Shown here: positions 7,287-22,908 of the stretch, one piece after another
Layout of the letters: every line of letters begins with the position of its first letter
How positions within the stretch are numbered: position 1 is the first letter of the stretch
IMG/VR virus record: IMGVR_UViG_2875703104_000003
Origin: a virus
Lineage: Duplodnaviria; Heunggongvirae; Uroviricota; Caudoviricetes
Length of the DNA: 22,908 nt
Strand: one strand, 5' to 3'
The notes under the pieces: generated by a model
The model's input: the letters and a program-made list of their open reading frames with translations, nothing else
Databases searched by the model: none
Told to the model about the DNA's origin: nothing
Program-made: the position numbers and the translations under genes

Positions 7287-7361
7287 GGCTGAACTCCTGA
7301 AAATGGCTGTGAAAATATCGCCCGCGAAATGCCAGGCTGATTAGGAAAACAGGAAAGGGGG

Positions 7362-7638: not shown

Positions 7639-7710
7639 GGTGTGCTCCTTATTTATACATAACGAAAAACGCCTCGAGTGAAGCGTAATTGGTATGCGGT
7701 AACGCCGCGC

Positions 7711-8079
7711 TCAGGCGGCCTTGATAGTCATATCATCTGAATCAAATATTCCTGATGTATCGATATCGGTAATTCTTATTCCTTCACTACCATCCATTGG
7801 AGGCCATCCTTCCTGACCATTTCCATCATTCCAGTCGAACTCACACACAACACCATATGCATTTAAGTCGCTTGAAATTGCTATAAGCAGAGCATGTTGC
7901 GCCAGCATGATTAATACAGCATTTAATACAGAGCCGTGTTTATTGAGTCGGTATTCAGAGTCTGACCAGAAATTATTAATCTGGTGAAGTTTTTCCTCTG
8001 TCATTACGTCATGGTCAATTTCAATTTCTATTGATGCTTTCCAGTCGTAATCAATGATGTATTTTTTGATGTTTGACAT
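7711..8079 (-). CDS. ea10: Ea10-like protein
   Basis: 122 aa, 'MSNIKKYIIDYDWKASIEIEIDHDVMTEEKLHQINNFWSDSEYRL...'; same position and size as lambda ea10 (from memory). Confidence 0.75.
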   Translation of the reverse strand: MSNIKKYIIDYDWKASIEIEIDHDVMTEEKLHQINNFWSDSEYRLNKHGSVLNAVLIMLAQHALLIAISSDLNAYGVVCEFDWNDGNGQEGWPPMDGSEGIRITDIDTSGIFDSDDMTIKAA

Positions 8080-8096
8080 CTATTCATATCCTCATA

Positions 8097-8125
8097 GATA
8101 AAAAATCGCCCTCACACTGGAGGGC
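8097..8125 (-). terminator. Candidate rho-independent terminator in the left operon (tL2-like position)
   Basis: Inverted repeat GCCCTC-ACACTG-GAGGGC at 8108..8125; on the minus strand it is followed by a T-run (plus-strand AAAAAAT at 8100-8106). Lies between ral and ea10. Confidence 0.4.
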
Positions 8126-8261
8126 AAAGAAGATTTCCAATAATCAGAACAAGTCGGCTCCTGTTTAGTTACGAGCGACATTGCTCCGTGTATTCACTCG
8201 TTGGAATGAATACACAGTGCAGTGTTTATTCTGTTATTTATGCCAAAAATAAAGGCCACTA

Positions 8262-8462
8262 TCAGGCAGCTTTGTTGTTCTGTTTACCAAGTTCTCTGGC
8301 AATCATTGCCGTCGTTCGTATTGCCCATTTATCGACATATTTCCCATCTTCCATTACAGGAAACATTTCTTCAGGCTTAACCATGCATTCCGATTGCAGC
8401 TTGCATCCATTGCATCGTTTGAATTGTCCACACCATTGATTTGTATCAATAGTCGTAGTCAT
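8262..8462 (-). CDS. ral: Ral restriction-alleviation protein
   Basis: 66 aa, 'MTTTIDTNQWCGQFKRCNGCKLQSECMVKPEEMFPVMEDGKYVDKWAIRTTAMIARELGKQNNKAA', matches lambda Ral. Confidence 0.85.
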   Translation of the reverse strand: MTTTIDTNQWCGQFKRCNGCKLQSECMVKPEEMFPVMEDGKYVDKWAIRTTAMIARELGKQNNKAA

Positions 8463-8532
8463 ACGGATAGTCCTGGTATTGTTCCATCACATCTTGAGGA
8501 TGCTCTTCGAACTCTTCAAATTCTTCTTCCAT
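8446..8532 (-). CDS. Small acidic ORF (28 aa) overlapping the ral start (lambda orf28 position)
   Basis: Hand translation: 'MEEEFEEFEEHPQDVMEQYQDYPYDYDY'. Too short for the ORF track; called on position only. Confidence 0.3.
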   Translation of the reverse strand: MEEEFEEFEEHPQDVMEQYQDYPYDYDY

Positions 8533-8675
8533 ATATCACCTTAAATAGTGGATTGCGGTAGTAAAGATTGTGCCTGTCTTTTAACCACATCAGGCTCGGT
8601 GGTTCTCGTGTACCCCTACAACGAGAAATCGGATAAACTCTATTCACCCCTACAGAGAGCAAAAGAGAAACGCCG

Positions 8676-9257
8676 ATGAACAACTCATGGTGGCAGGAAC
8701 TAATGCATTTTTTCCTGCAAGGAATGACACTTAAACAGTTGATTCATATGCTAATCATCCTGATCATATTGATTATTGTTATGCCGGTAAGCGTAAAAGA
8801 ATGGATAAACCTGCATAGTCCAGAAATCCTTCCTCATTACTGGATGTATTACATCCTGTTGTTTTGCGTTAGCTATGTGCTTAACGGCGTTGTTAATTCC
8901 GCTTATCACGCTGTGACTGAAAGAATTGAGGTATTCGCTGCTCAGAAGCGCAAATCTAAAGAAGAAAAATATGTGCAAGATTTGTTTGATTCGTTAACTC
9001 TTGGAGAAAGAGCGTATTTGGCATTCGCTGTAGCCGCTAATAACCAGCTACAAACGGAAAAGGGCGCTCATGAATCAATTTCATTGCTCAAAAAAGGACT
9101 CCTCGTTCGAAGGCCTCCTGCTGTTGGATATCCTGATACCGACCGTTTCGTTATCCCTGAAAGCTATAGACATGAGTGCTACATTAGGTTTGCCGGGAAG
9201 GCAGACAGCCTTATGGATGAACTTATCGCTCAGGATAAGCATGGCAAAAACAAGTAA
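8676..9257 (+). CDS. sieB: SieB superinfection exclusion protein
   Basis: 193 aa, 'MNNSWWQELMHFFLQGMTLKQLIHMLIILIILIIVMPVSVKEW...' with an N-terminal hydrophobic segment; matches lambda SieB. Opposite orientation to the left operon, as in lambda. Confidence 0.85.
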   Translation: MNNSWWQELMHFFLQGMTLKQLIHMLIILIILIIVMPVSVKEWINLHSPEILPHYWMYYILLFCVSYVLNGVVNSAYHAVTERIEVFAAQKRKSKEEKYVQDLFDSLTLGERAYLAFAVAANNQLQTEKGAHESISLLKKGLLVRRPPAVGYPDTDRFVIPESYRHECYIRFAGKADSLMDELIAQDKHGKNK

Positions 9258-9273
9258 TTAGCAAATGAATTTA

Positions 9274-9546
9274 TCATCTCGCCGTCAGTTGTTTTGATTT
9301 CCGGTAGCCTGCCGCGTAAAGAGCTACGTTCGGAAGACAAGTTGAACCTTCATATTTTCTGGTCAACGTTGTCAGAGTTATCACTTCTGCTCTCATTGCT
9401 GGTTTGAGCTTGCATTGCAAGACCACTCGTGAAGGGGTTGGCCTGTGTAGCTTGTCGGAGCTGATCGCCTCCTGACTTTGCAGATTTGCGCGACGAGCTC
9501 TACGGCGAGAAGCTGCGGTGCCTTTAAATTCTGTTTTTCTGGACAT
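9274..9546 (-). CDS. N: N-type transcription antiterminator (P22 gp24-like family, not lambda N)
   Basis: Preferred start ATG 9544-9546 with GGGAGG RBS, giving 91 aa 'MSRKTEFKGTAASRRRARRANLQ...'. Arginine-rich N-terminus; C-terminus 'LPNVALYAAGYRKSKQLTAR' resembles P22 gp24 'LPGVALYAAGHRKSKQITAR' (from memory). First gene downstream of the pL region. Confidence 0.7.
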   Translation of the reverse strand: MSRKTEFKGTAASRRRARRANLQSQEAISSDKLHRPTPSRVVLQCKLKPAMRAEVITLTTLTRKYEGSTCLPNVALYAAGYRKSKQLTAR

Positions 9547-9644
9547 GGATTCCTCCCGAATAAACTTTGGCGATGCAATCTCGAAGCTCCTCCTGAGACG
9601 GTTGCTTCGGCATTGCATCCCACAGCTTATGTGGTTGGGTGATC

Positions 9645-9690
9645 TGGCTTTTCAGCCACGTAGTCGAGAGTCGACGTTGTTTAAAGAGCC
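9645..9690 (-). promoter_or_regulatory. Candidate nutL (boxA-like plus boxB hairpin)
   Basis: Minus-strand reading: boxA-like GCTCTTTAA (plus 9682..9690) and a boxB-like hairpin UGGCU-GAAA-AGCCA (plus 9645..9658), between pL and N. Same architecture and spacing as the proposed nutR. Confidence 0.45.
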
Positions 9691-9699
9691 TGCCAGTCT

Positions 9700-9830
9700 G
9701 TTCCATTTGGCTTCCAGCGTCCTGCTGACGGTTAAATAGTACGATATGTACTTTACAAGATCAATACAATTTGTTGTAAGTTGGCGTGGTTTTTTATAAC
9801 GCTTTGTATTTAATAGTGTTGTTTTTTAGC
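9700..9830 (-). promoter_or_regulatory. pL / OL operator region (approximate)
   Basis: Lies between the terminator after the rex-slot cassette and nutL. Contains palindrome AGTAC-GATAT-GTACT at 9738..9752 and TTGTAT/AGTAC half-site motifs that recur in the cI-cro intergenic region. Promoter elements not resolved. Confidence 0.35.
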
Positions 9831-9950
9831 GTGGATGTATTGCCTCGGCGATGTAAGGAGAGATCAGAATTGCGTGGTTTAGTGGGTTGCATCTATTTAT
9901 TTTTCAATAAATATAATTGGTTATGTGTTTTTAGGTGGGCGAACGTGAGG

Positions 9951-9977
9951 CAAAGAAAACCCGGCGCTGAGGCCGGG
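9951..9977 (-). terminator. Rho-independent terminator ending the cI operon (tImm-like)
   Basis: Hairpin CCCGGC-GCTGAG-GCCGGG at 9960..9977, 6 nt after the stop of the 250-aa gene; on the minus strand it is followed by TTTTCTTTG. Confidence 0.5.
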
Positions 9978-9982
9978 TTGTA

Positions 9983-10735
9983 TTATGCTGCAAGTCTCTT
10001 AACCCAAGTCTCTCTTTTGGAGAATGGTAGAACTTGGCTTGATTCATGGAAGAGTAAGGAGAGTTGTTGCATTTGATCACCAATTGCTTCGCTGTCTATA
10101 ACAACAAATCTGTTGTTATACTCCTCACTTGAAGCTTTAAGATCAATTAGTTTCCCAAGCAATGAGTAAGCACTATTCCAGCTTCCTCCGTGTTTCACGC
10201 TTGATGTAAAAACGTATTTAGGTATGTCGGTTTTTATTGTTACAGGGACGGTAATTTGATGTCCACTCAAGCCATATACGTTTTCACGAAGAGAAAGTGC
10301 GTCTCTAAGCTCTGTGTGATATAGATAATCAATAACCATACTTTCAAACTTTTCAGCTTGAACTGGCTGATACCAGTCTAACGACAAAGTTGATGCGAGT
10401 ATACCAGCTCTAATTATGTTCGATGTAATCGCACCGACATCCTTTTCTGTTGCCCAAGCAATGATTTCTCCTCGAGCATTGAGTTCTGCGCCTTCTTTAA
10501 GCAGTAATTGTCGTATCTCATCAAGTCGTTTTTTGGTAAGCGAGATCCCTCTTGCCTCCATATTCATTAAGGCATCGCATCTGTCACTAACTAAATACCT
10601 ACCATTGACTTCACGGATAAAGGCACCGACATGCTCTCCATCATCACAGTAAGTGAATGGACTGATAATTCTCAAGGTCTTGCCTATTGGATGGCATTCG
10701 AAACCTAGTTGTGAGATCACTGTTGAGCACATCAT
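9983..10735 (-). CDS. Uncharacterized protein B of the rex-slot cassette (250 aa)
   Basis: ATG at 10733-10735 overlaps the stop of the upstream 185-aa gene (ATGA), so translation is probably coupled. No motif I recognise (no P-loop, no clear TM helices). Visibly AT-rich. Confidence 0.7.
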   Translation of the reverse strand: MMCSTVISQLGFECHPIGKTLRIISPFTYCDDGEHVGAFIREVNGRYLVSDRCDALMNMEARGISLTKKRLDEIRQLLLKEGAELNARGEIIAWATEKDVGAITSNIIRAGILASTLSLDWYQPVQAEKFESMVIDYLYHTELRDALSLRENVYGLSGHQITVPVTIKTDIPKYVFTSSVKHGGSWNSAYSLLGKLIDLKASSEEYNNRFVVIDSEAIGDQMQQLSLLFHESSQVLPFSKRETWVKRLAA

Positions 10736-11289
10736 ATTCCAAACCCCATTTGCCCCGACTCATCTTCAAGCGGTAAAGGTATTCTCCCAGAGTAAGTTAT
10801 GTTCAGATGTTTACAGAAGTAATTCCAATACCCTACCAGGTCATCTGGGTTTATGTCATCTTCGATTGGAAACGCTATTCTATCACTATAGTATCCAGCT
10901 TCTTCATAGTATACATGGTAGTGAGCACCGTAAATGATATCTTGGTACTTCGGATGATCGACCTTGTAACTATTCGTGTGTTTGTCAAAGTGATAGGTAT
11001 CTACCGCGAAAACCCTCTTGTTATGATAGAAAGCAATAATATTTATTTTAGGGTAAGAAATCGGGTCATCAGGTTCTGAATCCTGATCTGGTTTCCATTT
11101 CAGTTCAAACTTTAGCCCTTGTATAGGTATACAATCCTCATCCAAGGGGATGATATGGGCTTGTAGCCACATATCAGAGCGACTTGGTTTCTGTTTCCAT
11201 TTAACGCCAGAAAAGTTAACTATTTTTTTACAATAAAGTACTTTATCAACTTCTACTTGGCTTGGCTGATAATCATCTATTTTTGCCAA
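10732..11289 (-). CDS. Uncharacterized protein A of the rex-slot cassette (185 aa, start uncertain)
   Basis: Long ORF directly downstream of cI on the same strand. The ORF opens with TTG at 11287-11289, two codons after an in-frame TAA; the first in-frame ATG is at codon 40. Tyr/Asp-rich, no recognisable motif. AT-rich. Confidence 0.65.
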   Translation of the reverse strand: MAKIDDYQPSQVEVDKVLYCKKIVNFSGVKWKQKPSRSDMWLQAHIIPLDEDCIPIQGLKFELKWKPDQDSEPDDPISYPKINIIAFYHNKRVFAVDTYHFDKHTNSYKVDHPKYQDIIYGAHYHVYYEEAGYYSDRIAFPIEDDINPDDLVGYWNYFCKHLNITYSGRIPLPLEDESGQMGFGI

Positions 11290-11328
11290 TGTTTACCGCC
11301 CTGTAAATTGTAGATAAAAGTGGTTTCA

Positions 11329-11988
11329 TCACCCAAACGTCTCTTCAGGCCATTGGCTGGCGATAACTTTCCCCACAACGGAACAACTCTCATTGCATGG
11401 GATCATTGGGTATTGTGGGTTTAGTGGCTGTAGAAACACCTGACCGCTATCCCTGATCAGTTTCTTGAAGGTAAATTCATCACCACCAAGTCTGGCTATG
11501 CAGAAATCGCCGGGCTCAACAGCTTGCTCAGGGTCAACCAGAATTAACATCCCGTCAGGAAAGCTGGGTTTGGAACCTGTTGGTGCGGTCATTGAGTTAC
11601 CTTCAACCTCAAGCCAGAATGCAGAGTCACTGGCTTTTTTGGTTGTGCTTACCAATCTCTCCGCATCGCCTTTGGTAAAGGTTCTGAGTTCTGGAGAGAA
11701 CATCCCAGCCTGAACATGAGAAAAAACAGGGTACTCATATTGTTTTTTAACTGGGGCCGATGAGTATTCGCCAACAGGTGAAAATGTCCCGTCGTGGTTG
11801 AATGATATGTTATCAATACCAAGGTATTTAAACACCACACCAATATCACTAAGAGATGGATGACGAGATCCGCGCAACCAGTGTCCAATCCCACCCTGCG
11901 TCATACCTAGCTCTTCGGCTAACTTCTCTTGAGTTATGCCGAGCTCTTTCATTCTGGATCTAGCCAGTTCATACCATTTCATTTTCAT
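11329..11988 (-). CDS. cI: cI prophage repressor, hybrid (lambda-type C-terminal domain, non-lambda N-terminal DNA-binding domain)
   Basis: C-terminal part from '[28 protein letters not shown]' to '...[13 protein letters not shown]' matches lambda cI, including the Ser/Lys autocleavage region. N-terminal HTH '[38 protein letters not shown]' differs from lambda. Start is ATG 11986-11988 or 11980-11982; the track ORF extends to 12030. Confidence 0.85.
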
Positions 11989-12099
11989 GTCCTTATTATT
12001 ACGCTCTGTACTGGAACCATCCATGCACAATGTGTATTTTTACTTGTATTCGCAAAGTACATATTGTATTTTTTTATTCGTGTTTACTATGGAGGGCAT
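11989..12099. promoter_or_regulatory. OR operators with divergent pRM / pR (cI-cro intergenic region)
   Basis: About 110 bp between divergent cI and cro (about 100 bp in lambda). Three TGTATT repeats at 12033, 12045 and 12065, and the imperfect inverted repeat TACTTGTATTCGCAAAGTA at 12041..12059. Individual operators not resolved. Confidence 0.55.
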
Positions 12100-12315
12100 A
12101 TGAGCAACCTACGAAAATATCGAGAGTCACTGAATATCTCTCAAACAACACTTGCTAAGGCAGTTGGATGCACACAGGGAGCTATCGGACATTGGGAATC
12201 TGGTCGTCGCTTCCCAGACCTTAAAACATGCCGTGCTCTTGTTGCGTGCCTAAACAAGTTAGGCGCAAAAGTCAGTCTTGATGACGTGTTCCCGCCGGAA
12301 CACAAAGCCGCTTAA
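12100..12315 (+). CDS. cro: Cro-like repressor (HTH type)
   Basis: ATG at 12100, 71 aa 'MSNLRKYRESLNISQTTLAKAVGCTQGAIGHWESGRRFPDLKTCRALVACLNKLGAKVSLDDVFPPEHKAA' with a helix-turn-helix. GGAGGG lies only 3 nt upstream of the ATG, an unusually short spacer. First rightward gene opposite cI. Confidence 0.8.
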   Translation: MSNLRKYRESLNISQTTLAKAVGCTQGAIGHWESGRRFPDLKTCRALVACLNKLGAKVSLDDVFPPEHKAA

Positions 12316-12325
12316 TAAGCGGATC

Positions 12326-12371
12326 CGCTCTTTGTAACAACGGACATTCGTCCTACGTCGCTGAAAAGCGA
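12326..12371 (+). promoter_or_regulatory. Candidate nutR (boxA-like CGCTCTTT plus boxB hairpin)
   Basis: boxA-like CGCTCTTT at 12326..12333; hairpin UCGCU-GAAA-AGCGA at 12358..12371, a 5-bp stem with a GAAA loop like lambda boxB. Located between cro and cII. Confidence 0.5.
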
Positions 12372-12400
12372 GTTCCAAGATATCTGACCAACTAAGGCCA

Positions 12401-12418
12401 TATGCGTTTCCACGCATA
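12401..12418 (+). terminator. Candidate tR1-like hairpin
   Basis: Inverted repeat TATGCGT-TTCC-ACGCATA between nutR and cII; the downstream tract is only moderately T-rich, so this may be rho-dependent or not a terminator. Confidence 0.3.
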
Positions 12419-12456
12419 CCTTTCAACTAACTATTCACTATTGGAAATCTTAAGAA

Positions 12457-12753
12457 ATGGAAAGAACAAGTTACAGCAAACTATCACAGCGTGACGTTGA
12501 TCGCGCAGAAACAGATTTACTTATCAATCTGTCAGCTATTACCCAGCGCGGTCTGGCAAAGATGATTGGCTGTCATGAATCGAAGATAAGCAGAACGGAC
12601 TGGAGATTTATTGCTTCGGTCTTGTGTGCTTTCGGAATGGCATCAGACATCAGTCCGATTAGCAGGGCTTTTAAGTATGCGCTTGATGGACTCACCAATA
12701 AAAAACGCCCGGCGGCAACCGAGCGTTCTGAACAAATCCAGATGGAATTCTGA
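12457..12753 (+). CDS. cII: cII-like transcriptional activator (mosaic; lambda-identical C-terminal tail)
   Basis: 98 aa. C-terminal 'TNKKRPAATERSEQIQMEF' matches the lambda cII C-terminus; the N-terminal two thirds differ. Confidence 0.8.
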   Translation: MERTSYSKLSQRDVDRAETDLLINLSAITQRGLAKMIGCHESKISRTDWRFIASVLCAFGMASDISPISRAFKYALDGLTNKKRPAATERSEQIQMEF

Positions 12754-12785
12754 GGTCATTACTGGATCAATCCACAGGAGTCATT

Positions 12786-13685
12786 ATGACAAATACAGCA
12801 AAAATACTCAACTTCTGCAGAGGTAACTTTGCCAAACAGGAGCGTAATGTGGCAGATCTCGATGATGGTTACGCCAGACTATCAAATATGCTGCTTGAGG
12901 CTTATTCAGGCGCAGATCTGACCAAGCGACAGTTTAAAGTGCTGCTTGCCATTCTGCGTAAAACCTATGGATGGAATAAACCAATGGACAGAATCACCGA
13001 TTCTCAACTTAGCGAGATTACAAAGTTACCCGTCAAACGGTGCAATGAAGCCAAGTTAGAACTCGTCAGAATGAATATTATCAAGCAGCAAGGCGGCATG
13101 TTTGGACCAAATAAAAACATCTCAGAATGGTGTATCCCTCAAAACGAGGGAAAATCCCCTAAAACGAGGGATAAAACATCCCTCAAATTGGGGGATTGCT
13201 ATCCCTCAAAACAGGGGGACACAAAAGACACTATTACAAAAGAAAAAAGAAAAGATTATTCGTCAGAGAATTCTGGCGAATCCTCTGACCAGCCAGAAAA
13301 CGACCTTTCTGTGGTGAAACCGGATGCTGCAATTCAGAGCGGCAGCAAGTGGGGGACAGCAGAAGACCTGACCGCCGCAGAATGGATGTTTGACATGGTG
13401 AAGACCATCGCGCCATCAGCCAGAAAACCGAATTTTGCAGGGTGGGCTAACGATATCCGCCTGATGCGTGAACGTGACGGACGTAACCATCGCGACATGT
13501 GTGTACTGTTCCGCTGGGCATGCCAGGACAACTTCTGGTCCGGTAACGTGCTGAGCCCGGCCAAACTCCGCGACAAGTGGACCCAGCTCGAAATCAACCG
13601 TAACAAGCAACAGGCAGGTGTGACAGCCTGCAAACCAAAACTCGACCTGACAAACACTGACTGGATTTACGGGGTGGATTTATGA
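12786..13685 (+). CDS. O: Replication initiator O
   Basis: 299 aa, 'MTNTAKILNFCRGNFAKQERNVADLDDGYARLSNMLLEAYSGADLTKRQFKVLLAILRKTYGWNKPMDRITDSQLSEITKLPVKRCNEAKLELVRMNIIKQQ...' matches lambda O. AGGAG RBS. Confidence 0.95.
   Translation: MTNTAKILNFCRGNFAKQERNVADLDDGYARLSNMLLEAYSGADLTKRQFKVLLAILRKTYGWNKPMDRITDSQLSEITKLPVKRCNEAKLELVRMNIIKQQGGMFGPNKNISEWCIPQNEGKSPKTRDKTSLKLGDCYPSKQGDTKDTITKEKRKDYSSENSGESSDQPENDLSVVKPDAAIQSGSKWGTAEDLTAAEWMFDMVKTIAPSARKPNFAGWANDIRLMRERDGRNHRDMCVLFRWACQDNFWSGNVLSPAKLRDKWTQLEINRNKQQAGVTACKPKLDLTNTDWIYGVDL
13134..13260 (+). repeat. ori-lambda: four iterons plus AT-rich unwinding region inside O
   Basis: Four direct repeats of about 18 bp of the TCCCTCAAAACGAGGGA type at about 13135, 13155, 13179 and 13202, followed by an A-rich stretch (ACAAAAGAAAAAAGAAAAGATTATT). 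Confidence 0.85.
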
Positions 13686-14383
13686 AAAACATCGCCGCAC
13701 AGATGGTTAATTTTGACCGTGAGCAGATGCGTCGGATCGCCAACAACATGCCGGAACAGTACGACGAAAAGCCGCAGGTACAGCAGGTAGCGCAGATCAT
13801 CAACGGTGTGTTCAGCCAGTTACTGGCAACTTTCCCGGCGAGTCTGGCTAACCGTGACCAGAACGAACTGAACGAAATCCGCCGCCAGTGGGTTCTGGCT
13901 TTCCGGGAAAACGGGATCACCACAATGGAACAGGTTAACGCAGGAATGCGCGTAGCCCGTCGGCAGAATCGACCATTTCTGCCATCACCCGGGCAGTTTG
14001 TTGCATGGTGCCGGGAAGAAGCATCCGTTATCGCCGGACTGCCAAACGTCAGCGAGCTGGTTGATATGGTTTACGAGTATTGCCGGAAGCGAGGCCTGTA
14101 TCCGGATGCAGAGTCTTATCCGTGGAAATCGAACGCGCACTACTGGCTGGTTACCAACCTGTACCAGAACATGCGGGCCAATGCGCTGACTGACGCGGAA
14201 TTACGACGCAAGGCTGCCGATGAACTGACCTGTATGACAGCGCGAATTAACCGTGGTGAGACGATACCTGAACCAGTAAAACAACTTCCTGTCATGGGCG
14301 GCAGACCTCTAAATCGTGTTCAGGCGCTGGCGAAGATCGCAGAAATTAAAGCTAAGTTAGGACTGAAAGGAGCAAGTGTATGA
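13682..14383 (+). CDS. P: Replication protein P (DnaB helicase loader)
   Basis: 233 aa, 'MKNIAAQMVNFDREQMRRIANNMPEQYDEKPQVQQVAQIINGVFSQLLATFPASLANRDQNELNEIRRQW...' matches lambda P. Start overlaps the O stop. Confidence 0.95.
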   Translation: MKNIAAQMVNFDREQMRRIANNMPEQYDEKPQVQQVAQIINGVFSQLLATFPASLANRDQNELNEIRRQWVLAFRENGITTMEQVNAGMRVARRQNRPFLPSPGQFVAWCREEASVIAGLPNVSELVDMVYEYCRKRGLYPDAESYPWKSNAHYWLVTNLYQNMRANALTDAELRRKAADELTCMTARINRGETIPEPVKQLPVMGGRPLNRVQALAKIAEIKAKLGLKGASV

Positions 14384-14670
14384 CGGGCAAAGAGGCAATT
14401 ATTCATTACCTGGGGACGCATAATAGCTTCTGTGCGCCGGACGTTGCCGCGCTAACAGGCGCAACAGTAACCAGCATAAATCAGGCCGCGGCTAAAATGG
14501 CACGGGCAGGTCTTCTGGTTATCGAAGGTAAGGTCTGGCGAACGGTGTATTACCGGTTTGCTACCAAGGAAGAACGGGAAGGAAAGATGAGCACGAACCT
14601 GATTTTTAAGGAGTGTCGCCAGAGTGCCACGATGAAACGGATATTGGCGGTATATGGAGTTAAAAGATGA
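14380..14670 (+). CDS. ren: Ren (Rex-exclusion relief)
   Basis: 96 aa, 'MTGKEAIIHYLGTHNSFCAPDVAALTGATVTSINQAAAKMARAGLLVIEGKVWRTVYYRFATKEEREGKMSTNLIFKECRQSATMKRILAVYGVKR' matches lambda Ren. Confidence 0.85.
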   Translation: MTGKEAIIHYLGTHNSFCAPDVAALTGATVTSINQAAAKMARAGLLVIEGKVWRTVYYRFATKEEREGKMSTNLIFKECRQSATMKRILAVYGVKR

Positions 14671-14695
14671 CCATCTACATCACTGAGCTAATAAC

Positions 14696-14727
14696 AGGCC
14701 TGCAGGTAATCGCAGGCCTTTTTATTT
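14696..14727 (+). terminator. Rho-independent terminator (tR2-like) between ren and ninB
   Basis: 8-bp stem AGGCCTGC / GCAGGCCT with loop AGGTAATC, followed by TTTTTATTT. Confidence 0.6.
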
Positions 14728-14743
14728 GGGGGAGAGGGAAGTC

Positions 14744-15184
14744 ATGAAAAAACTAACCTTTGAAATTCGATCTCCGGCACATCAGCAAAACGCTATTCAC
14801 GCAGTACAGCAAATCCTTCCAGACCCAACCAAACCAATCGTAGTAACCATTCAGGAACGCAACCGCAGCTTAGACCAAAACAGGAAGCTATGGGCCTGCT
14901 TAGGTGACGTCTCTCGTCAGGTTGAATGGCATGGTCGCTGGCTGGATGCAGAAAGCTGGAAGTGTGTGTTTACCGCAGCATTAAAGCAGCAGGATGTTGT
15001 TCCTAACCTTGCCGGGAATGGCTTTGTGGTAATAGGCCAGTCAACCAGCAGGATGCGTGTAAGCGAATTTGCGGAGCTATTAGAGCTTATACAGGCATTC
15101 GGTACAGAGCGTGGCGTTAAGTGGTCAGACGAAGCGCGACTGGCTCTCGAATGGAAAGCGCGATGGGGAGATCGGGCTGCATGA
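14744..15184 (+). CDS. ninB: NinB recombination protein
   Basis: ATG at 14744 with GAGGGAAG RBS; 146 aa 'MKKLTFEIRSPAHQQNAIHAVQQILPDPTKPIVVTIQERNRSLDQNRKLWACLGDVSRQVEWHGRWLDAESWKCVF...' matches lambda NinB. Confidence 0.85.
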   Translation: MKKLTFEIRSPAHQQNAIHAVQQILPDPTKPIVVTIQERNRSLDQNRKLWACLGDVSRQVEWHGRWLDAESWKCVFTAALKQQDVVPNLAGNGFVVIGQSTSRMRVSEFAELLELIQAFGTERGVKWSDEARLALEWKARWGDRAA

Positions 15185-15708
15185 CTATCAAATCAAATAC
15201 GCCAGCACACGACAAGGACTGCTGGCAAACGCCGCTTTGGCTTTTTGATGCACTGGATATTGAGTTTGGATTCTGGCTGGATTCGGCAGCGAGCGACAAA
15301 AATGCTCTGTGCGCTCACTGGCTAACTGAGGACGACGACGCGCTCAATTCTGAGTGGGTAAGCCACGGTGCAATCTGGAATAACCCACCGTACAGCAATA
15401 TCAGGCCGTGGGTGGAAAAAGCCGCTGAGCAGTGTATACAACAGCGACAGACGGTAGTGATGCTTGTGCCAGAGGATATGTCTGTCGGATGGTTCAGCAA
15501 GGCTCTGGAGAGTGTTGACGAAGTTCGTATTATCACTGATGGACGGATTAATTTTATCGAACCATCGACAGGGCTGGAGAAGAAGGGAAACAGCAAAGGC
15601 TCCATGCTGCTGATTTGGCGACCGTTCATCAGTCCTCGACGGATGTTTACTACCGTATCCAAAGCGGCATTGATGGCGATCGGGCAGGGCGTCAGGAGGG
15701 CTGCATGA
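15181..15708 (+). CDS. Phage Dam-like DNA N6-adenine methyltransferase (orphan)
   Basis: ATG at 15181 overlaps the ninB stop (ATGA). 175 aa '[31 protein letters not shown]...[16 protein letters not shown]...' with the NPPY amino-methyltransferase motif. No adjacent restriction gene. Confidence 0.8.
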
Positions 15709-15881
15709 GACGACAGCGACGAAGCATCACCGACATAATCTGCGAAAACTGCAAATACCTTCCAACGAAACGCTCCAGAAATAAACGCAAGCTAATCCCA
15801 AAAGAATCTGACGTAAAAACCTTCAATTACACAGCCCACCTGTGGGATATCCGGTGGCTAAGATATCGTGCGAGGAAATGA
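15705..15881 (+). CDS. ninE: NinE
   Basis: 58 aa '[58 protein letters not shown]' matches lambda NinE. ATGA overlap with the methyltransferase stop. Confidence 0.85.
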
Positions 15882-16225
15882 CAATGGATTATTCACAGTT
15901 AAGTGATTTTGAAATTAACAGAATGGTAGGAGACATAATTTTTAAAGGCCTTTGGGCAAGTAAACCGGAAACATCAGGGAATAACACCAACAAATGGTAT
16001 TACGGAAATGCTGATACAACTTTTGAGCCATTAAATCATTTGCCTGACTACTGCAATGATCCGAGCGCTTCATGGCCGATTATTGAGAAATACAGGATTT
16101 CTATCTTAGACCAGTTAACTGAATGGTGTGTGGATGCAAAAGGCGTAAGCCCAATATTTGATACCAGACCTCTCCGCGCCGCCATGATTGTCTTTCTCCT
16201 GATGCAGGAGGCCAATAATGCTTAG
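15878..16225 (+). CDS. Hypothetical nin-region protein
   Basis: ATG at 15878 overlaps the ninE stop (ATGA); an alternative ATG lies at 15884. 115 aa '[69 protein letters not shown]...'. No motif recognised. Confidence 0.5.
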
Positions 16226-16435
16226 CCCATCTCAATCCCTTCAATACCTGAAAGAAAGCATAGAGCGGGCTTCAATGTGCACAGAGTGGATTCTATCTAG
16301 GTTTAGCGCATACAGAAGATTGCCGGTAAAGGGCATGCCAAGCAAGTCGATGCTGCATATGCAAAAGAATGCGCGCTGGAAGGTATGGCGAGAACACAGG
16401 TTATGTGGCTGAAAGAGGGGGTTATTAAGGCGTGA
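16218..16435 (+). pseudogene. ninF-like 5' fragment fused out of frame to the 3' end of a second gene upstream of rusA (YbcO-like by position)
   Basis: Frame A (ATG 16218) starts '[17 protein letters not shown]', which is NinF-like, then diverges. A second frame encodes '[42 protein letters not shown]' with its stop overlapping the rusA GTG start (GTGA), but with in-frame stops upstream. Reads as a mosaic junction or frameshift. Confidence 0.4.
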
Positions 16436-16794
16436 ATACCTACAGCATCACATTACCCTGGCCTCCGAGCAATAATCGCTATTACCGCCATAATCGCGGG
16501 CGCACGCACGTCAGCGCAGAGGGGCAGGCATACCGCGATAACGTCGCCCGAATCATTAAAAACGCAATGCTGGATATCGGCCTGGCTATGCCTGTGAAAA
16601 TCCGCATTGAGTGCCACATGCCGGATCGCCGTCGCCGTGACCTGGATAATCTGCAAAAAGCCGCTTTTGACGCACTCACTAAAGCAGGTTTCTGGCTGGA
16701 TGATGCTCAGGTCGTTGATTACCGCGTTGTGAAGATGCCTGTTACCAAAGGTGGGAGGCTGGAACTGACCATCACCGAAATGGGGAATGAATGA
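16432..16794 (+). CDS. rusA: RusA Holliday-junction resolvase
   Basis: 120 aa '[120 protein letters not shown]' matches E. coli DLP12 RusA from memory. GTG start. Confidence 0.9.
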
Positions 16795-16931
16795 TGTTTG
16801 AGTTTAATATGGCAGAACTTCTTCGCCACCGCTGGGGGCGTCTGCGCTTATATCGTTTCCTCGGTTCTGTTTTGACCGATTACCGAATACTGAAGAATTA
16901 CGCCAAAACCCTGACAGGAACAGGAGTATGA
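16791..16931 (+). CDS. ylcG: YlcG-like small protein
   Basis: Hand-translated 46 aa '[46 protein letters not shown]'. Start overlaps the rusA stop (ATGA). Same position as ylcG in DLP12. Confidence 0.55.
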
Positions 16932-17016
16932 AGTCAGAGATAACAATCAACTAATACTGTTTTGTTGATTTTTGCTTGTAATTGGCGTTCTGGTCTGATT
17001 TTTGTGGAGTAAGTTG

Positions 17017-17550
17017 ATGCGTGATATTCAGATGGTTCTTGAGCGTTGGGGTGCGTGGGCGGCTAATAATCATGAAGATGTGACCTGGTCGTCCATTGCC
17101 GCCGGTTTTAAGGGATTAATTCCTTCAAAAGTAAAATCTCGCCCGCAATGTTGTGACGATGACGCGATGATCATTTGCGGGTGCATGGCCCGTCTGAAAA
17201 AGAACAACAGCGATTTACACGATTTATTAGTAGANNNNNNNNNNNNNNNNNNNNNTTTTAAGGGATTAATTCCTTCAAAAGTAAAATCTCGCCCGCAATG
17301 TTGTGACGATGACGCGATGATCATTTGCGGGTGCATGGCCCGTCTGAAAAAGAACAACAGCGATTTACACGATTTATTAGTAGATTATTATGTATGTGGT
17401 ATGACATTCATGTCACTGGCAAGTAAGCATTGCTGCTCGGATGGTTATATCGGGAAAAGGTTACAGAAGGCTGAGGGCATAATTGAAGGGATGTTAATGG
17501 CATTAGATATCCGGTTAGATATGGATATCGTTGCTAATAATTCTAATTGA
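17017..17550 (+). CDS. Q: Late-gene antiterminator Q (phage 82 / QuuD type); length inflated by an assembly duplication
   Basis: ATG at 17017 with GGAG RBS. '[76 protein letters not shown]...[14 protein letters not shown]' matches QuuD-type Q. The CDS contains the 21-N run 17235..17255 flanked by a duplicated block of about 129 bp; the real gene is about 127 codons. Confidence 0.85.
17235..17255. other. Assembly spacer (21 N) flanked by a duplicated block of about 129 bp
   Basis: 17106..17234 is repeated exactly at 17256..17384. Confidence 0.9.
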
Positions 17551-17691
17551 TATGCAATTGTTTACTAAAAGTTATTAAAAATGGGGCGTGGAAACGCCCC
17601 CAAAATAAAGGGTAATATATAACAGAAGGTTTATATAGTAAGAAGCAAGGTAGTGCTTCTAAAGGAAGTGGCTTGAGGGCTCCACTTATAT
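17551..17691 (+). promoter_or_regulatory. Probable pR' late promoter / Q-utilisation region with structured leader
   Basis: AT-rich sequence immediately after Q with hairpins GGGGCGT-GGAA-ACGCCCC (about 17583..17600) and GAAGC-AAGGTAGT-GCTTC (about 17642..17659), followed by the terminator at 17692. Placement is by analogy to lambda pR'-qut-tR'; -10/-35 elements not resolved. Confidence 0.4.
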
Positions 17692-17727
17692 GTTGCGGAG
17701 GCAAAGCCTCCCGCAACATATCTTTTT
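17692..17727 (+). terminator. Rho-independent terminator (tR'-like)
   Basis: Stem GTTGCGGAGG / CCTCCCGCAAC with loop CAAAG, followed by ATATCTTTTT. Lies between Q and the 3' end of the convergent porin gene. Confidence 0.6.
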
Positions 17728-17738
17728 CGTAAGTCAGA

Positions 17739-18821
17739 TTAGAACTGATAAACCAGACCTACAGCGACGATGTCGTCGGTATCAATACCAGCTGTTTTGG
17801 TAAACTTACTATCGTCAATTAAGTTGATTTTGTAATCAACAAAAGTGGACATGTTTTTATTAAAGTAGTAAGTAGCACCGACATCGACATACTTGACTAA
17901 GTCTCGGTCACCATGAACACCAAGGTCTTTACCTTTTGACTGAAGGTAAGCAACAGATGGNCGCAGACCGAAGTCAAACTGATATTGTGCTACTGCTTCA
18001 AAGTTTTGTGCTTTGTTTGCAATATGGTTATTANCAAAAACGGTCATATTCTGAGTTTCAGAATATGTGGTAGCCAGATAGATATTGTTCGCATCATATT
18101 TCAGGCCTGCAGCCCATACTTCCGCATTTTTGCCGGAGGCATTGAATTTGCTCTTACCATAGGCGACCTGACCGTCAGTGCGATCTGATTTAGCATAGGT
18201 TGCACCCACGCCGAATCCTTCATACTCATAAGTAGTGGAGAAACCGAAACCATCACCATTGGCTTCAGTTACGTCAGTGCGGTCATTTTTACCCTGATAC
18301 TGAGCAGCAAAGTTCAGGCCATCGACCAGACCAAAGAAGTCGTTGTTACGATAAGTTGCAACACCAGTAGTGCGACCAGTCATGAACACATCTGTTTGGG
18401 TCCAGGTATCACCACCGAATTCTGGCAGNACGTCAGTCCACGCACCGATGTCGTATGCTACACCGTAGTTACGGCCGTAATCGATTGAGCCGTAATCACC
18501 AAATTTCAGGCCTGCAAATGCAAGACGGGTTTTGTCTTTGGAAGAACCTTGAGATTCAGCACGGTTGCCTTTGAATTCATATTCCCACTGACCGAAACCA
18601 GTCAGTTGATCGTTGATTTGGGTTTCACCTTTGAAGCCAAGACGGGCATAAGTAGTATCACCATCATCTGCATCATTAGAGGAGAAGTAGTGCTTGGCAT
18701 TAACTTTCCCGTATAGATCCAGCTTGTTACTGTCTTTATTATAAATTTCAGCTGCCTGAGCAGACATCGCCATCAGTACTGATGCAGCTACAGCAGAAAT
18801 TGCCACTGTTAATTTTTTCAT
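17739..18821 (-). CDS. nmpC: Outer-membrane general porin, NmpC/OmpD-like (prophage cargo)
   Basis: 360 aa with signal peptide '[23 protein letters not shown]', '[24 protein letters not shown]...' and C-terminal '...VGLVYQF'. Matches NmpC from memory. Contains 3 single-N base calls (17961, 18034, 18429). Convergent with Q. Confidence 0.9.
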
Positions 18822-18837
18822 TGTACGCCCTTTTTTT

Positions 18838-18937
18838 NNNNNNNNNNNNNNNNNNNNNNNNNNNNNNNNNNNNNNNNNNNNNNNNNNNNNNNNNNNNNNN
18901 NNNNNNNNNNNNNNNNNNNNNNNNNNNNNNNNNNNNN
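18838..18937. other. Scaffold gap (100 N) with no flanking duplication
   Basis: Run of exactly 100 N. Left flank is 16 nt upstream of the porin start; right flank is the interior of a tail-fiber gene. Unknown length of sequence is missing. Confidence 0.95.
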
Positions 18938-21031
18938 GGCGCCATGACGGAAGATGATGTCATGCCGGAGGCACTGCGCCGTTTTGAGCTGATGGTGAAT
19001 GAAGTGGCACGTCATGCCGGAGCATCATCACAGAGCGCAGCGGCAGCAAAGAAATCCGAAACTGCTGCGGCATCATCGAAGAACGCGGCGAAAACCTCAG
19101 AAACGAATGCAGCTAACAGCGCACAGGCGGCAGCGGCCTCGCAGACTGCATCGGCAAACTCCGCGACAGCAGCCAAAAAATCAGAAACCAGCGCGAAAAA
19201 CAGCGAGACAGCCACAAAGGCCAGCGAAAAAAACGCAAAATCCAGCCAGACGGCAGCGAAAACCAGTGAGACGAATGCCAAAGACAGTGAAGCCAACGCA
19301 AAGGTGAGCGAAACAGCGGCGGCGAACTCGGCGAAAGCATCGGCAGCAAGCCAGACGGCAGCAAAAGCAAGTGAAGATGCTGCCAGAGAATACGCAAACC
19401 AGACAGCAGAGCCGTACAGATATGTTTTACAGCCGCTGCCGGATGTGTGGATACCCTTTAATGATTCGCTGGATATGATTACGGGCTATTCTCCGGGTTA
19501 TAAAAAAGTGAAGATTGGTGATAATGTGGTTCAGGTTGCCAGTGATAAACAGGTTAATTTCAGTCGCGCATCAACGGCAACATATATCAACAAATCTGGC
19601 GAACTGAAAACGGCGGAAATTAATGAGCCACGATTTGAGTGTGATGGCCTGCTTATTGAGGGGCAAAGAACGAACTTCTTCCCGAACAGTACAGACCCTT
19701 CGAAGTGGAATAAGTCAACTTCACTGGACGTTACAGAAACAGGCACAGATAGTTTCGGGTTTAATTATGGCCGGTTTGTCGTACAGGATTCGATTGTTGG
19801 TACAAGTAAAGCGCATACCATTATCGGACTGTATTCGAGTACCGGAGGGGTTGATACTTCAGGGGACGAAAAGCATGTAACTATATCCTGTCGGGTAAAA
19901 AGTGAAGTTGATAATATCGCCGTTCGTATTTTATTTGAACATTATGATGGGGAGGTAAGGACATCAATAGGAGCAGCAAACCTGAACCTTACCACCCGCA
20001 TAATTAGCAAGACAGGTCAGACAAGCCGTGTTACAGCAAGGTCTGTTAAGGATGATGCAACTGGCTGGATATTTTTTGAGGCTACATTAAAAGCAGATAC
20101 AACAGAAAATACGGTTGGTGGTTTTGTCCAGTATTCTCCGGATACAGGNNNNNNNNNNNNNNNNNNNNNGACAAGCCGTGTTACAGCAAGGTCTGTTAAG
20201 GATGATGCAACTGGCTGGATATTTTTTGAGGCTACATTAAAAGCAGATACAACAGAAAATACGGTTGGTGGTTTTGTCCAGTATTCTCCGGATACAGGGC
20301 AGATGGTTACATCAGGGGATTATCTCGATGTAACCACTCCACAGATTGAGGCTGGTACAGGCGCATCATCTTTTATTGTTACGGGGACGGCACCGGCAAC
20401 GCGGGCAAGCGATATGGTGACAGTCCCAATCAAGAATAACCTTTATAATCTTCCTTTTACGGTTCTTTGTGAGGTACATAAGAACTGGTATAAAACGCCA
20501 AATGTAGCGCCGCGTGTTTTTGATACCGGCGGTCATCAAACCGGAGCGGGGATCGTAATGGGGTTTGGTTCATCAGGTGGGTACGACGGTTTTCCGTATT
20601 GCGATATAGGTGGTTCAGACCGACGAATAAATGAAAATGCCGGGCTGGAAAAAATGCTTATTGGTATGCGGGTAAAGTCCGAACGGTCCACATGTGTAGT
20701 CAGTAACGGTAAGTTAAGCAGCGAAACTAAAACCAAATGGGNNNNNNNNNNNNNNNNNNNNNGTTCAGACCGACGAATAAATGAAAATGCCGGGCTGGAA
20801 AAAATGCTTATTGGTATGCGGGTAAAGTCCGAACGGTCCACATGTGTAGTCAGTAACGGTAAGTTAAGCAGCGAAACTAAAACCAAATGGGAATATATCC
20901 GGAGTACAGCAACCATTCGCATTGGTGGACAAACTACAGCAGGATTACGCCATTTATTTGGGCATGTGAGGAATTTTCGTCTCTGGCATAAAGAGCTAAC
21001 AGATGCGCAGCTTGGGGAGGTTGTGGAGTGA
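18938..21031 (+). CDS. stf: Side tail fiber protein (Stf-like), 5'-truncated by the scaffold gap; contains two assembly duplications
   Basis: 'AMTEDDVMPEALRRFELMVNEVARHA' parallels lambda Stf 'AMTEDDARPEVLRRLELMVEEVARNA' (about residue 100 of Stf), followed by the typical K/S/E/T/A-rich repeats (AAKKSETAAASSKNAAKTSETNA...). The C-terminal half differs from lambda Stf. Contains the N runs 20149..20169 and 20742..20762 with flanking duplications. Confidence 0.8.
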   Translation, partial: GAMTEDDVMPEALRRFELMVNEVARHAGASSQSAAAAKKSETAAASSKNAAKTSETNAANSAQAAAASQTASANSATAAKKSETSAKNSETATKASEKNAKSSQTAAKTSETNAKDSEANAKVSETAAANSAKASAASQTAAKASEDAAREYANQTAEPYRYVLQPLPDVWIPFNDSLDMITGYSPGYKKVKIGDNVVQVASDKQVNFSRASTATYINKSGELKTAEINEPRFECDGLLIEGQRTNFFPNSTDPSKWNKSTSLDVTETGTDSFGFNYGRFVVQDSIVGTSKAHTIIGLYSSTGGVDTSGDEKHVTISCRVKSEVDNIAVRILFEHYDGEVRTSIGAANLNLTTRIISKTGQTSRVTARSVKDDATGWIFFEATLKADTTENTVGGFVQYSPDTXXXXXXXXTSRVTARSVKDDATGWIFFEATLKADTTENTVGGFVQYSPDTGQMVTSGDYLDVTTPQIEAGTGASSFIVTGTAPATRASDMVTVPIKNNLYNLPFTVLCEVHKNWYKTPNVAPRVFDTGGHQTGAGIVMGFGSSGGYDGFPYCDIGGSDRRINENAGLEKMLIGMRVKSERSTCVVSNGKLSSETKTKWXXXXXXXXSDRRINENAGLEKMLIGMRVKSERSTCVVSNGKLSSETKTKWEYIRSTATIRIGGQTTAGLRHLFGHVRNFRLWHKELTDAQLGEVVE
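20149..20169. other. Assembly spacer (21 N) flanked by a duplicated block
   Basis: About 20020..20148 is repeated exactly at 20170..20298. Confidence 0.9.
20742..20762. other. Assembly spacer (21 N) flanked by a duplicated block
   Basis: The sequence before the N run (ending ...AACCAAATGGG) recurs after it (GTTCAGACCGACG...AACCAAATGGG). Confidence 0.9.
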
Positions 21032-21456
21032 GAGATTTCACGTTGCGTTTCAGTGATAAAGCAGATTTCAGGGCATTTCTCAGGAAACTTAACTGGGAAG
21101 AGGACGAAGAGCTGCAGAATGCCGTTCTGGTTGATGAGATTGGTTTTACGTTCAGGGAGACAGATGTTTCTGATGACGGAGAACCAGAATACACGCGAAA
21201 CGAAGGGTACTTTGTTAATATCCGTCTTCTTGACGNNNNNNNNNNNNNNNNNNNNNAAGAGCTGCAGAATGCCGTTCTGGTTGATGAGATTGGTTTTACG
21301 TTCAGGGAGACAGATGTTTCTGATGACGGAGAACCAGAATACACGCGAAACGAAGGGTACTTTGTTAATATCCGTCTTCTTGACGATGGATTTGAGGATT
21401 CCGTGTTCCGTGAGTGGGTGGTTACACCAGAGCGCCCGCTCAGGGAGTGGTTTTAA
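21028..21456 (+). CDS. Hypothetical small protein immediately downstream of stf (tfa position but not Tfa-like); inflated by an assembly duplication
   Basis: GTG start overlaps the stf stop (GTGA). De-duplicated product is about 92 aa: 'MRDFTLRFSDKADFRAFLRKLNWEEDEELQNAVLVDEIGFTFRETDVSDDGEPEYTRNEGYFVNIRLLDDGFEDSVFREWVVTPERPLREWF'. Acidic. Confidence 0.45.
   Translation: MRDFTLRFSDKADFRAFLRKLNWEEDEELQNAVLVDEIGFTFRETDVSDDGEPEYTRNEGYFVNIRLLDXXXXXXXXELQNAVLVDEIGFTFRETDVSDDGEPEYTRNEGYFVNIRLLDDGFEDSVFREWVVTPERPLREWF
21236..21256. other. Assembly spacer (21 N) flanked by a duplicated block
   Basis: About 21109..21235 is repeated exactly after the N run. Confidence 0.9.
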
Positions 21457-21465
21457 GGATAGCAG

Positions 21466-21759
21466 ATGGATATCACGTCGATACTTCATGCGCTTTGTGC
21501 CGTGGCGGTGCAGGTACTGGCTGGTCTTTTTACCGGAAACTGGGCTTACGGGGCGATAGCCGGTTGTACGTTCTTCATTGCGCGTGAACACACCCAGGCA
21601 GAATATCGCTGGATTGAAATGTTCGGGCATGGCAAGCGGATTAACATGCCGTGGTGGGGCGGTTTTGATCCACGTGCATGGGATGTGGCAAGCCTGATGG
21701 ATTTTGCTGTGCCGGTGGTGGCGTGTCTGCTGGTCTGGCTGTTGGTTAATCGTGGGTGA
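21466..21759 (+). CDS. Hypothetical small membrane protein
   Basis: ATG at 21466 with AAGGA RBS. 97 aa with hydrophobic segments 'ILHALCAVAVQVLAGLF', 'YGAIAGCTFFIA' and 'LMDFAVPVVACLLVWLLV'. Confidence 0.5.
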   Translation: MDITSILHALCAVAVQVLAGLFTGNWAYGAIAGCTFFIAREHTQAEYRWIEMFGHGKRINMPWWGGFDPRAWDVASLMDFAVPVVACLLVWLLVNRG

Positions 21760-21768
21760 AAAAGGTGA

Positions 21769-21897
21769 GCAGTATATGCAACGAAGGAGGAAACATCATT
21801 GCTGGCGGCATGGAAGGCATGCAGGGTGTTGCTGAACCGTGTTGATACATCAACTGCACCTGATATTGAGTGGCCTACGAACCCTGTCAGGGAGTAA
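21769..21897 (+). pseudogene. tfa: Tail fiber assembly protein (Tfa) C-terminal remnant
   Basis: Hand translation: '[42 protein letters not shown]', matching the conserved Tfa C-terminus. No start codon; preceded by in-frame stops. Confidence 0.6.
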
Positions 21898-21951
21898 TCA
21901 TTGGGATTATGCCGCAGCACGTCTTAAGCAAGAACGTGCTGCGGTTGGATG

Positions 21952-22758
21952 CTATTTTTTCCCTGAAGCGGAAAACATTACTACAGTACCTTGAATCTTG
22001 GTTTTAACATTCTCGAAATGCTCTGAGAGTATATGTGTTAAGCCTTCTTCGGAATCTTTTGTGTTTGAAAAGATGCCTTTCTGATTGTAAATGCGCATCA
22101 GTTTTTGACCGAAGCTATTGTGCACAACGCCGTCANNNNNNNNNNNNNNNNNNNNNACATTCTCGAAATGCTCTGAGAGTATATGTGTTAAGCCTTCTTC
22201 GGAATCTTTTGTGTTTGAAAAGATGCCTTTCTGATTGTAAATGCGCATCAGTTTTTGACCGAAGCTATTGTGCACAACGCCGTCACCAAGAATTGTGGCT
22301 CCGTATAGAGTTCCATCGTCAGTTAAGGCCTGCGCCGCATTGCGTATTACACAGCTTTTTGTAGATATATTTCCAGGCAGGCAGTGAAGAAGGTAAAACA
22401 TGGAAATGGAATCAAATTGACCATGTAACGCCGCGGGATAAGGATCAAAAACATCATGGCTAATTTTATGTTTAATTTTTGANTCCCCAGCCCTTGTCGA
22501 TGCCGCGTTCAGGCTAGCTTCGTTCAAATCCATTAAAGATATCAGACTNCTCTCAGGTACGTGAGTAAGGTAAAACCCAGTTCCAACGCCAATATCCAGA
22601 TGGTTGTTACCTAAATGTTCCAGAAAGTGTGGAAGAAGGTGTTCCTTTGTAGGACATCCCCATGCAAGCCGATTTGATACTCCCAAAACCCACCAGTCAT
22701 AAAGCTTTAGGGTAAGTGGTGTGTAAATTTTAGCCCCATCATCTGTGTTTTTTTTCAT
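21952..22758 (-). CDS. Class I SAM-dependent methyltransferase, substrate unknown; inflated by an assembly duplication; at contig edge
   Basis: ATG at 22756-22758. Contains the SAM-binding motif 'LDIGVGTGFYL'. Contains the N run 22136..22156 with a flanking duplication and two single-N calls (22483, 22549). The track ORF reaches 22908 only because the 5' end is duplicated after the N run 22761..22781. Confidence 0.65.
   Translation of the reverse strand: MKKNTDDGAKIYTPLTLKLYDWWVLGVSNRLAWGCPTKEHLLPHFLEHLGNNHLDIGVGTGFYLTHVPEXSLISLMDLNEASLNAASTRAGXSKIKHKISHDVFDPYPAALHGQFDSISMFYLLHCLPGNISTKSCVIRNAAQALTDDGTLYGATILGDGVVHNSFGQKLMRIYNQKGIFSNTKDSEEGLTHILSEHFENXXXXXXXXDGVVHNSFGQKLMRIYNQKGIFSNTKDSEEGLTHILSEHFENVKTKIQGTVVMFSASGKK
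22136..22156. other. Assembly spacer (21 N) flanked by a duplicated block
   Basis: About 22009..22135 is repeated exactly at 22157..22283. Confidence 0.9.
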
Positions 22759-22760
22759 TA

Positions 22761-22781
22761 NNNNNNNNNNNNNNNNNNNNN
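22761..22781. other. Assembly spacer (21 N) followed by a duplicated block running to the window end
   Basis: 22632..22758 is repeated exactly at 22782..22908. Confidence 0.9.
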
Positions 22782-22908
22782 GAAGAAGGTGTTCCTTTGT
22801 AGGACATCCCCATGCAAGCCGATTTGATACTCCCAAAACCCACCAGTCATAAAGCTTTAGGGTAAGTGGTGTGTAAATTTTAGCCCCATCATCTGTGTTT
22901 TTTTTCAT

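Follow-up and report, generated by a model that had tools for sequence, protein, structure and literature searches.

The part of the window from position 17,106 to its end is almost certainly a short-read scaffold in which overlapping contigs were placed side by side without being merged, and in which nothing biological is duplicated. By the window we mean the whole stretch of DNA that was analysed, 22,908 nucleotides of the IMG/VR virus record IMGVR_UViG_2875703104_000003. Each of its six 21-N spacers stands between two copies of the same 129-bp block, and the genes beneath these artefacts are familiar E. coli prophage genes with nothing unusual about them.

N runs and duplicated blocks

An N-run count over the whole window gave 231 Ns in 12 runs, namely six of 21 N, one of 100 N and five single Ns (Table 1). 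An earlier note on this sequence had reported seven N runs; the 100-N gap, which joins two prophages, and the five single Ns are absent from its description. Comparison of the blocks on both sides of the spacers bore out its six 21-N runs, their start positions and the exact repeat flanking each of them. Each of the first five runs is preceded and followed by the same 129 bases. At the sixth, the 127 bases remaining to the end of the window equal the first 127 of the 129-bp block in front of the run. The repeats had been described as exact, which they are, and as about 127-129 bp long, which needs amendment: every duplicate is 129 bp, the last being shown as 127 by the end of the window.

The spacing from the start of one copy to the start of the other is 150 at all six 21-N runs. 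The six duplicates occupy coding and non-coding positions and affect genes on both strands. No further occurrence of the duplicated blocks was found on either strand in the rest of the window, and checking of the 100-N run and of the single Ns revealed no flanking duplicates there. Tandem Repeats Finder reported nothing in this region. Six exact 129-mers arranged in this way cannot have arisen by chance.

Position 1 of the window is the stop codon of an integrase gene (CTA), and the final three bases are the start codon of a methyltransferase gene (CAT on the plus strand). The window thus has the appearance of a provirus call whose ends were cut back to the limits of genes, and such trimming would account for the last duplicate showing only 127 of its 129 bases. 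That the window ends inside a duplicated block, as had been claimed, was confirmed; the end falls at the methyltransferase start codon.

For reference, the segments delimited by the longer N runs were numbered S1-S8 from left to right, and the six duplicated junctions are referred to as J1-J6. B coordinates, used to the right of the 100-N gap, are collapsed coordinates minus 18787.

Table 1. Features of the window discussed in the text (window positions unless marked B).
Feature	Position	Strand	Description
J1	17106..17384		129-bp block 17106-17234, 21 N 17235-17255, identical block 17256-17384; within quuD
J2	20020..20298		129 bp, 21 N 20149-20169, identical block; within tail-fibre gene; repeat contig S3 to unique S4
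J3	20613..20891		129 bp, 21 N 20742-20762, identical block; within tail-fibre gene; unique S4 to repeat S5
J4	21107..21385		129 bp, 21 N 21236-21256, identical block; within 92-aa ORF downstream of stf; repeat S5 to unique S6
J5	22007..22285		129 bp, 21 N 22136-22156, identical block; within methyltransferase gene; unique S6 to repeat S7
J6	22632..22908		129 bp, 21 N 22761-22781, first 127 bp of same block; cut by window end at methyltransferase start codon
100-N gap	18838..18937		no flanking duplicate; left, icd-site prophage; right, potB-site prophage
S3	B1-1211		segment right of 100-N gap
S4	B1083-1654		segment right of 100-N gap
S5	B1526-1998		segment right of 100-N gap
S6	B1870-2748		segment right of 100-N gap
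S7	B2620-3223		segment right of 100-N gap
S8	from B3095		segment right of 100-N gap
quuD (lambdoid Q antiterminator)	17017..17550	+	reads 177 aa from ATG; true length 127 aa
Prophage porin, annotated ompC (NmpC/Lc type)	17739..18821	-	360 aa; three single Ns
Tail-fibre gene, 3′ part	18938..21031	+	100 extra codons from J2 and J3
Hypothetical ORF downstream of stf	21028..21456	+	reads 142 aa; true length 92 aa
Class I SAM-dependent methyltransferase (YbcY-like)	21952..22908	-	reads 318 aa; true length 218 aa
Single N	17961		within prophage ompC; replaces one base, gap-free alignment
Single N	18034		within prophage ompC; replaces one base
Single N	18429		within prophage ompC; replaces one base
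Single N	22483 (= B2946)		within methyltransferase; SNP between potB-site and DLP12-remnant copies
Single N	22549 (= B3012)		within methyltransferase; SNP between potB-site and DLP12-remnant copies

Collapse of the duplicates restores known genes

The sequence was collapsed by removing each 21-N run together with one copy of its block, that is 150 bp or exactly 50 codons per junction. Since 129 + 21 equals 150, a whole number of codons, the ORFs concerned are lengthened in frame and not broken; the spurious codons number 50 in Q, 50 in the 92-aa ORF, 100 in the tail fibre and 100 in the methyltransferase. In BLAST searches, many complete E. coli chromosomes gave a single unbroken alignment with the collapsed 3223 nt to the right of the 100-N gap, covering 100% of the query, and the only mismatches to those genomes were two single Ns. 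To the left of the gap, the 2438 nt of window positions 16400-18837 are represented in complete genomes by 2288 nt, a difference of exactly 150. Without collapsing, the segments match EcPF40 or ATCC 25922 at 100% (single Ns aside), and the subject ranges of neighbouring segments overlap by 129 nt.

Collapsed quuD shows no mismatch to a 384-nt reference gene (127 aa). Its 127-aa product matches the Pfam family Phage_antitermQ (PF06530) in one stretch over positions 1-118 of 118 (E=6.7e-54); in the uncollapsed 177-aa form this match is split into two stretches. The 3′ part of the tail-fibre gene, whose product has a phage_tail_N domain, is colinear after collapse with a 2067-nt gene encoding 688 aa, the first 273 nt of which are absent. 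The ORF downstream of stf is identical, with 0 mismatches, to the gene for WP_001204582.1 (279 nt, 92 aa), and the next ORF in the collapsed sequence is an annotated reference gene of 294 nt (97 aa). The collapsed methyltransferase gene corresponds to a 657-nt, 218-aa reference gene and differs from it only at two Ns. The artificial lengthening that the earlier note had proposed for these four ORFs is thus upheld by the match of their collapsed versions to reference genes. The removal of each N run and one copy, which it had put forward as a check, restored the reading frames and gave a Q of 127 aa.

Contig ends coincide with paralog repeat boundaries

A second copy of the tail-fibre sequence is present in MCJCHV-1, a complete ST1193 genome, in the prophage at the trp/ompW site. 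It matches the copy at the potB site exactly to B1221 and once more over B1516-2008, with SNPs in B1222-B1515 in between and a mismatch at B2009. The methyltransferase gene, too, has a second copy, found for example in M16807 in the DLP12 remnant that separates argU from ompT. Between the outer mismatches at B2609 and B3234, this copy and the potB-site one differ only at B2946 and B3012 and are otherwise identical (B2610-3233).

Five mismatch positions (B1222, B1515, B2009, B2609 and B3234) reproduce all ten contig ends of J2-J6, the boundaries being B1222 for J2, B1515/1516 for J3, B2009 for J4, B2609 for J5 and B3234 for J6. The repeat contigs S3, S5 and S7 fall short of the repeat boundaries by exactly 10 nt (1221 to 1211, 1516 to 1526, 2008 to 1998, 2610 to 2620 and 3233 to 3223). 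The contigs of unique sequence (S4, S6 and S8) extend exactly 139 nt into the repeats (1222 - 139 = 1083; 1515 + 139 = 1654; 2009 - 139 = 1870; 2609 + 139 = 2748; 3234 - 139 = 3095). This geometry is that of de Bruijn graph edges alternating between collapsed two-copy and single-copy sequence, and it lends direct support to the joining of edges without merging. The earlier note had put forward the same mechanism, which agrees to the base with the paralog repeat boundaries of complete genomes.

The branch point was demonstrated at five of the six junctions (J2-J6), J1 being the exception. No second copy that could lie behind J1 and the Ns in ompC was found in the K-12 DLP12, EcPF40, SK1144 and MCJCHV-1 prophages examined. 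K-12 DLP12 was rejected as the source of this paralog because it is too divergent. The prophages at the potB site of EcPF40 and SK1144, and at the ompW/trp site of MCJCHV-1, were rejected because their antiterminator is a different one and they lack the porin. Exact matches of the part right of the gap to the prophage tail ends of ATCC 25922, KE51 and RIVM yielded no boundary pattern; the informative paralogs are those of MCJCHV-1 and M16807.

The five single Ns each stand for exactly one base and are confined to S2 and S7. Those at 22483 and 22549 fall on exactly both SNPs between the paralogous methyltransferase copies and are therefore collapsed-paralog ambiguities. By analogy, S2, which holds the 3′ part of quuD and ompC with its three Ns, may also be a collapsed two-copy contig.

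Alternative explanations of the duplicated junctions

Direct repeats flanking N runs are also the bare pattern that real tandem duplications of 129 bp would leave if each were split by 21 uncallable bases, and a biological origin might be read into the fact that all six insertions (150 bp) are in frame. Duplication would, however, demand that unrelated genes on the two strands had undergone six events of one length and one spacer, with no sequence divergence at all. All best-matching complete genomes listed carry the sequence as a single copy at 100% identity, and the ends of the blocks follow the positions of paralog SNPs, which is unexpected of duplication. Searches of the viral, metagenome and species-representative genome collections for the J1 junction with any 21-base spacer gave no match; as a control, the search pattern does match the window itself. 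Looking up the X-containing Q and 142-aa proteins by their exact sequences likewise gave no match. We regard the probability of real duplications as close to nil, in agreement with the earlier note, which had also dismissed them.

Unmerged contigs could in principle share a 129-mer merely as a repeat, without being truly adjacent, in which case collapsing would produce chimeric genes. S3, S5 and S7 are indeed collapsed multi-copy contigs with more than one continuation each, and the 100-N join of the same scaffold looks non-colinear. Against this, EcPF40 and MCJCHV-1 have a potB-site prophage identical to the collapsed S3-S8 path throughout the 3223 nt of that path, and 76 genomes have an icd-site prophage identical to the collapsed S1-S2 path. 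As both collapsed paths match complete genomes, the order of contigs at the six 21-N junctions reproduces real haplotypes, and false adjacency at these junctions is very improbable. The preferred reading therefore remains that of truly neighbouring contigs printed with their overlap unmerged.

The 100-N gap joins parts of two prophages

Over window positions 1-18837, identity to the icd-site prophage is 100% for ATCC 25922, KE51, RIVM_C040753 and others, with two extra ISEc52 insertions in ATCC 25922-type genomes relative to the window. In genomes with the icd-site prophage, ompC is followed by approximately 23 kb that contain essD-rrrD-rzpD, iss, the genes from terminase through J, a different tail fibre and sitABCD. 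The part to the right of the gap is the tail end of a prophage at the potB/potC site; in EcPF40 and SK1144 the potB-site prophage differs from the left part of the window in its antiterminator and lacks the porin, as mentioned above. Both prophages are present in KE51, where the potB-site tail end is 98.3% identical to the part right of the gap and is located some 25 kb upstream of the icd-site integrase, so that the order in the window is not colinear with KE51. ATCC 25922 has the same neighbourhood as KE51, with another tail-fibre type.

Homologous morphogenesis modules are common to the icd-site and potB-site prophages. Most likely, the scaffold exits one prophage, skips the collapsed repeats and enters the other, and it is probably chimeric at this point. 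The 749-aa ORF that reads through the gap is spurious, since 100 is not a multiple of 3. A genuine join would mean that recombination or deletion in a prophage had brought the icd-site half from int through quuD to ompC next to the potB-site end from the tail fibre to the methyltransferase, giving an element without lysis and morphogenesis modules. We consider this unlikely; the early half of the icd-site prophage was not seen linked to the potB-site tail end in any complete genome examined.

In gene content the window resembles known lambdoid prophages, namely the icd-site sitABCD/iss prophage (ATCC 25922), the potB/potC-site prophage (ST1193 strains) and the DLP12 remnant, with which it shares quuD, an NmpC/Lc-type porin, a tail fibre and a YbcY-like methyltransferase. 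The genes affected by the artefacts are 100% identical to those of finished genomes. The known prophages differ from the window in that, in the complete genomes examined, the early half of one and the tail end of the other are not linked.

Proposed origin of the 21-N spacers and 129-bp duplicates

According to the favoured explanation, small de Bruijn contigs specific to one prophage take turns with contigs collapsed from near-identical paralogs elsewhere in the same genome. Adjacent contigs share the branch k-mer, and the scaffolder abutted them with a minimal gap and no merging, so that the shared stretch appears on both sides of a fixed N spacer. The sizes would be best explained by a true overlap of 149 nt before trimming, a 1-N placeholder for a non-positive gap, and a gap-filling step in which 10 nt are cut from both gap edges and the gap stays unclosed. 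These values would give 10 + 1 + 10 = 21 N, a printed duplicate of 149 - 20 = 129 and a period of 149 + 1 = 150. An overlap of 139 with trimming of the repeat contigs only would fit the coordinates equally well. The earlier estimate of an overlap near k=127 does not hold, as 129 nt are printed twice and the repeat boundaries lead to an overlap of 139 or 149.

SSPACE may write one N for a non-positive gap; our search of the literature found no text backing this single-N placeholder. Velvet needs an odd k and produces contigs that overlap by k-1. An overlap of 149 would correspond to k=150 for an assembler whose contigs overlap by k-1 and to k=149 for one whose contigs overlap by k; Velvet would give an overlap of 148 and is thus not compatible with one of 149. 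Edge trimming in GapFiller is set by the parameter t, with a default of 10 nt (PMC3446322), and the succession of Velvet, SSPACE and GapFiller is a widely used bacterial pipeline (PMC5320598).

The junctions resemble the outcome of GapFiller trimming in that the repeat contigs are 10 nt short at both ends and the 21 Ns can be decomposed as 10 + 1 + 10; in the unique contigs, any effect of trimming is confounded with that of k. They depart from it in that the 100-N gap lies outside the same arithmetic, and the use of GapFiller is inferred here, not documented. With negative-gap joins, i.e. de Bruijn k-mer overlaps left unmerged, they share a fixed exact duplicate with a fixed N spacer, ends at repeat/unique boundaries, and the return of the reference sequence upon collapse. 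The difference is that the printed 129 is not itself a k and seems to represent what is left of the graph overlap after two 10-nt trims.

Significance for records of this type

The finding is a matter of data hygiene only. Each junction adds 43 duplicated residues and 7-8 X per protein, which mimics a domain duplication, and such errors are inherited by protein catalogues, length statistics, repeat scans and provirus completeness estimates built on the record. With the repair rule "period 150 = 129 + 21 N", other records that came through the same pipeline can be corrected simply and automatically. The apparent provirus extending from int to the methyltransferase probably consists of two half-prophages.

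Scaffold structure across the 100-N gap

The two sides of the 100-N gap correspond to different elements (see table). To its left lies the early half of the icd-site prophage of the sitABCD type, running from int through quuD (Q antiterminator) to the porin gene ompC, and to its right the end of the potB-site prophage that extends from the tail fibre to the methyltransferase. Complete genomes carry these parts in two distinct prophages, and in the icd-site prophage, lysis and morphogenesis genes occupy approximately 23 kb downstream of ompC. In KE51 the tail end of the potB-site prophage is located upstream of the integrase gene of the icd-site prophage. The scaffold across the gap is probably chimeric or incomplete.

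Coordinates of the distinguished features
Feature	Position	Remarks
ISEc52 insertion points	~5193-5198, ~8639-8644	unbroken in the window
Single Ns, ompC	17961, 18034, 18429	
100-N gap	18838-18937	left, icd-site sitABCD-type prophage; right, potB-site prophage
Degenerate repeats, tail-fibre gene	19076-19389	spaced at multiples of 21 nt (7 codons)
Single Ns, methyltransferase gene	22483, 22549	

Genomes of the ATCC 25922 type carry one ISEc52 element (IS3 family) at each of two points at which the window lacks it; apart from these insertions, their prophage is 100% identical.

The window begins with the integrase stop codon (1-3) and ends with the methyltransferase start codon (22906-22908), and thus looks like a provirus prediction trimmed at gene calls. 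Its right limit was placed on a methyltransferase gene lengthened by the assembly artefact, i.e. the 21-N spacers flanked by exact 129-bp duplicates.

A repeat of more than 5.6 kb, spanning J, lom and the 5′ portion of stf, is common to the potB-site and trp/ompW-site prophages of MCJCHV-1 (ST1193, NZ_CP030111.1). It is exact except for two small indels at genes annotated as “frameshifted”, which may be errors of the MCJCHV-1 assembly.

Single Ns and tail-fibre repeats

Both single Ns of the methyltransferase gene occupy the exact positions of the only two SNPs distinguishing, in complete genomes, the potB-site copy from that of the DLP12 remnant (argU-ompT location). These Ns are collapsed-paralog ambiguities. 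The three Ns within the prophage porin gene suggest a second, near-identical quuD-ompC copy in the source genome; none was found among the relatives examined.

The degenerate repeats of the tail-fibre gene encode an Ala/Ser/Glu/Thr/Lys-rich stretch and are also present in finished genomes. They are a genuine feature of this gene, separate from the N-spacer artefact.
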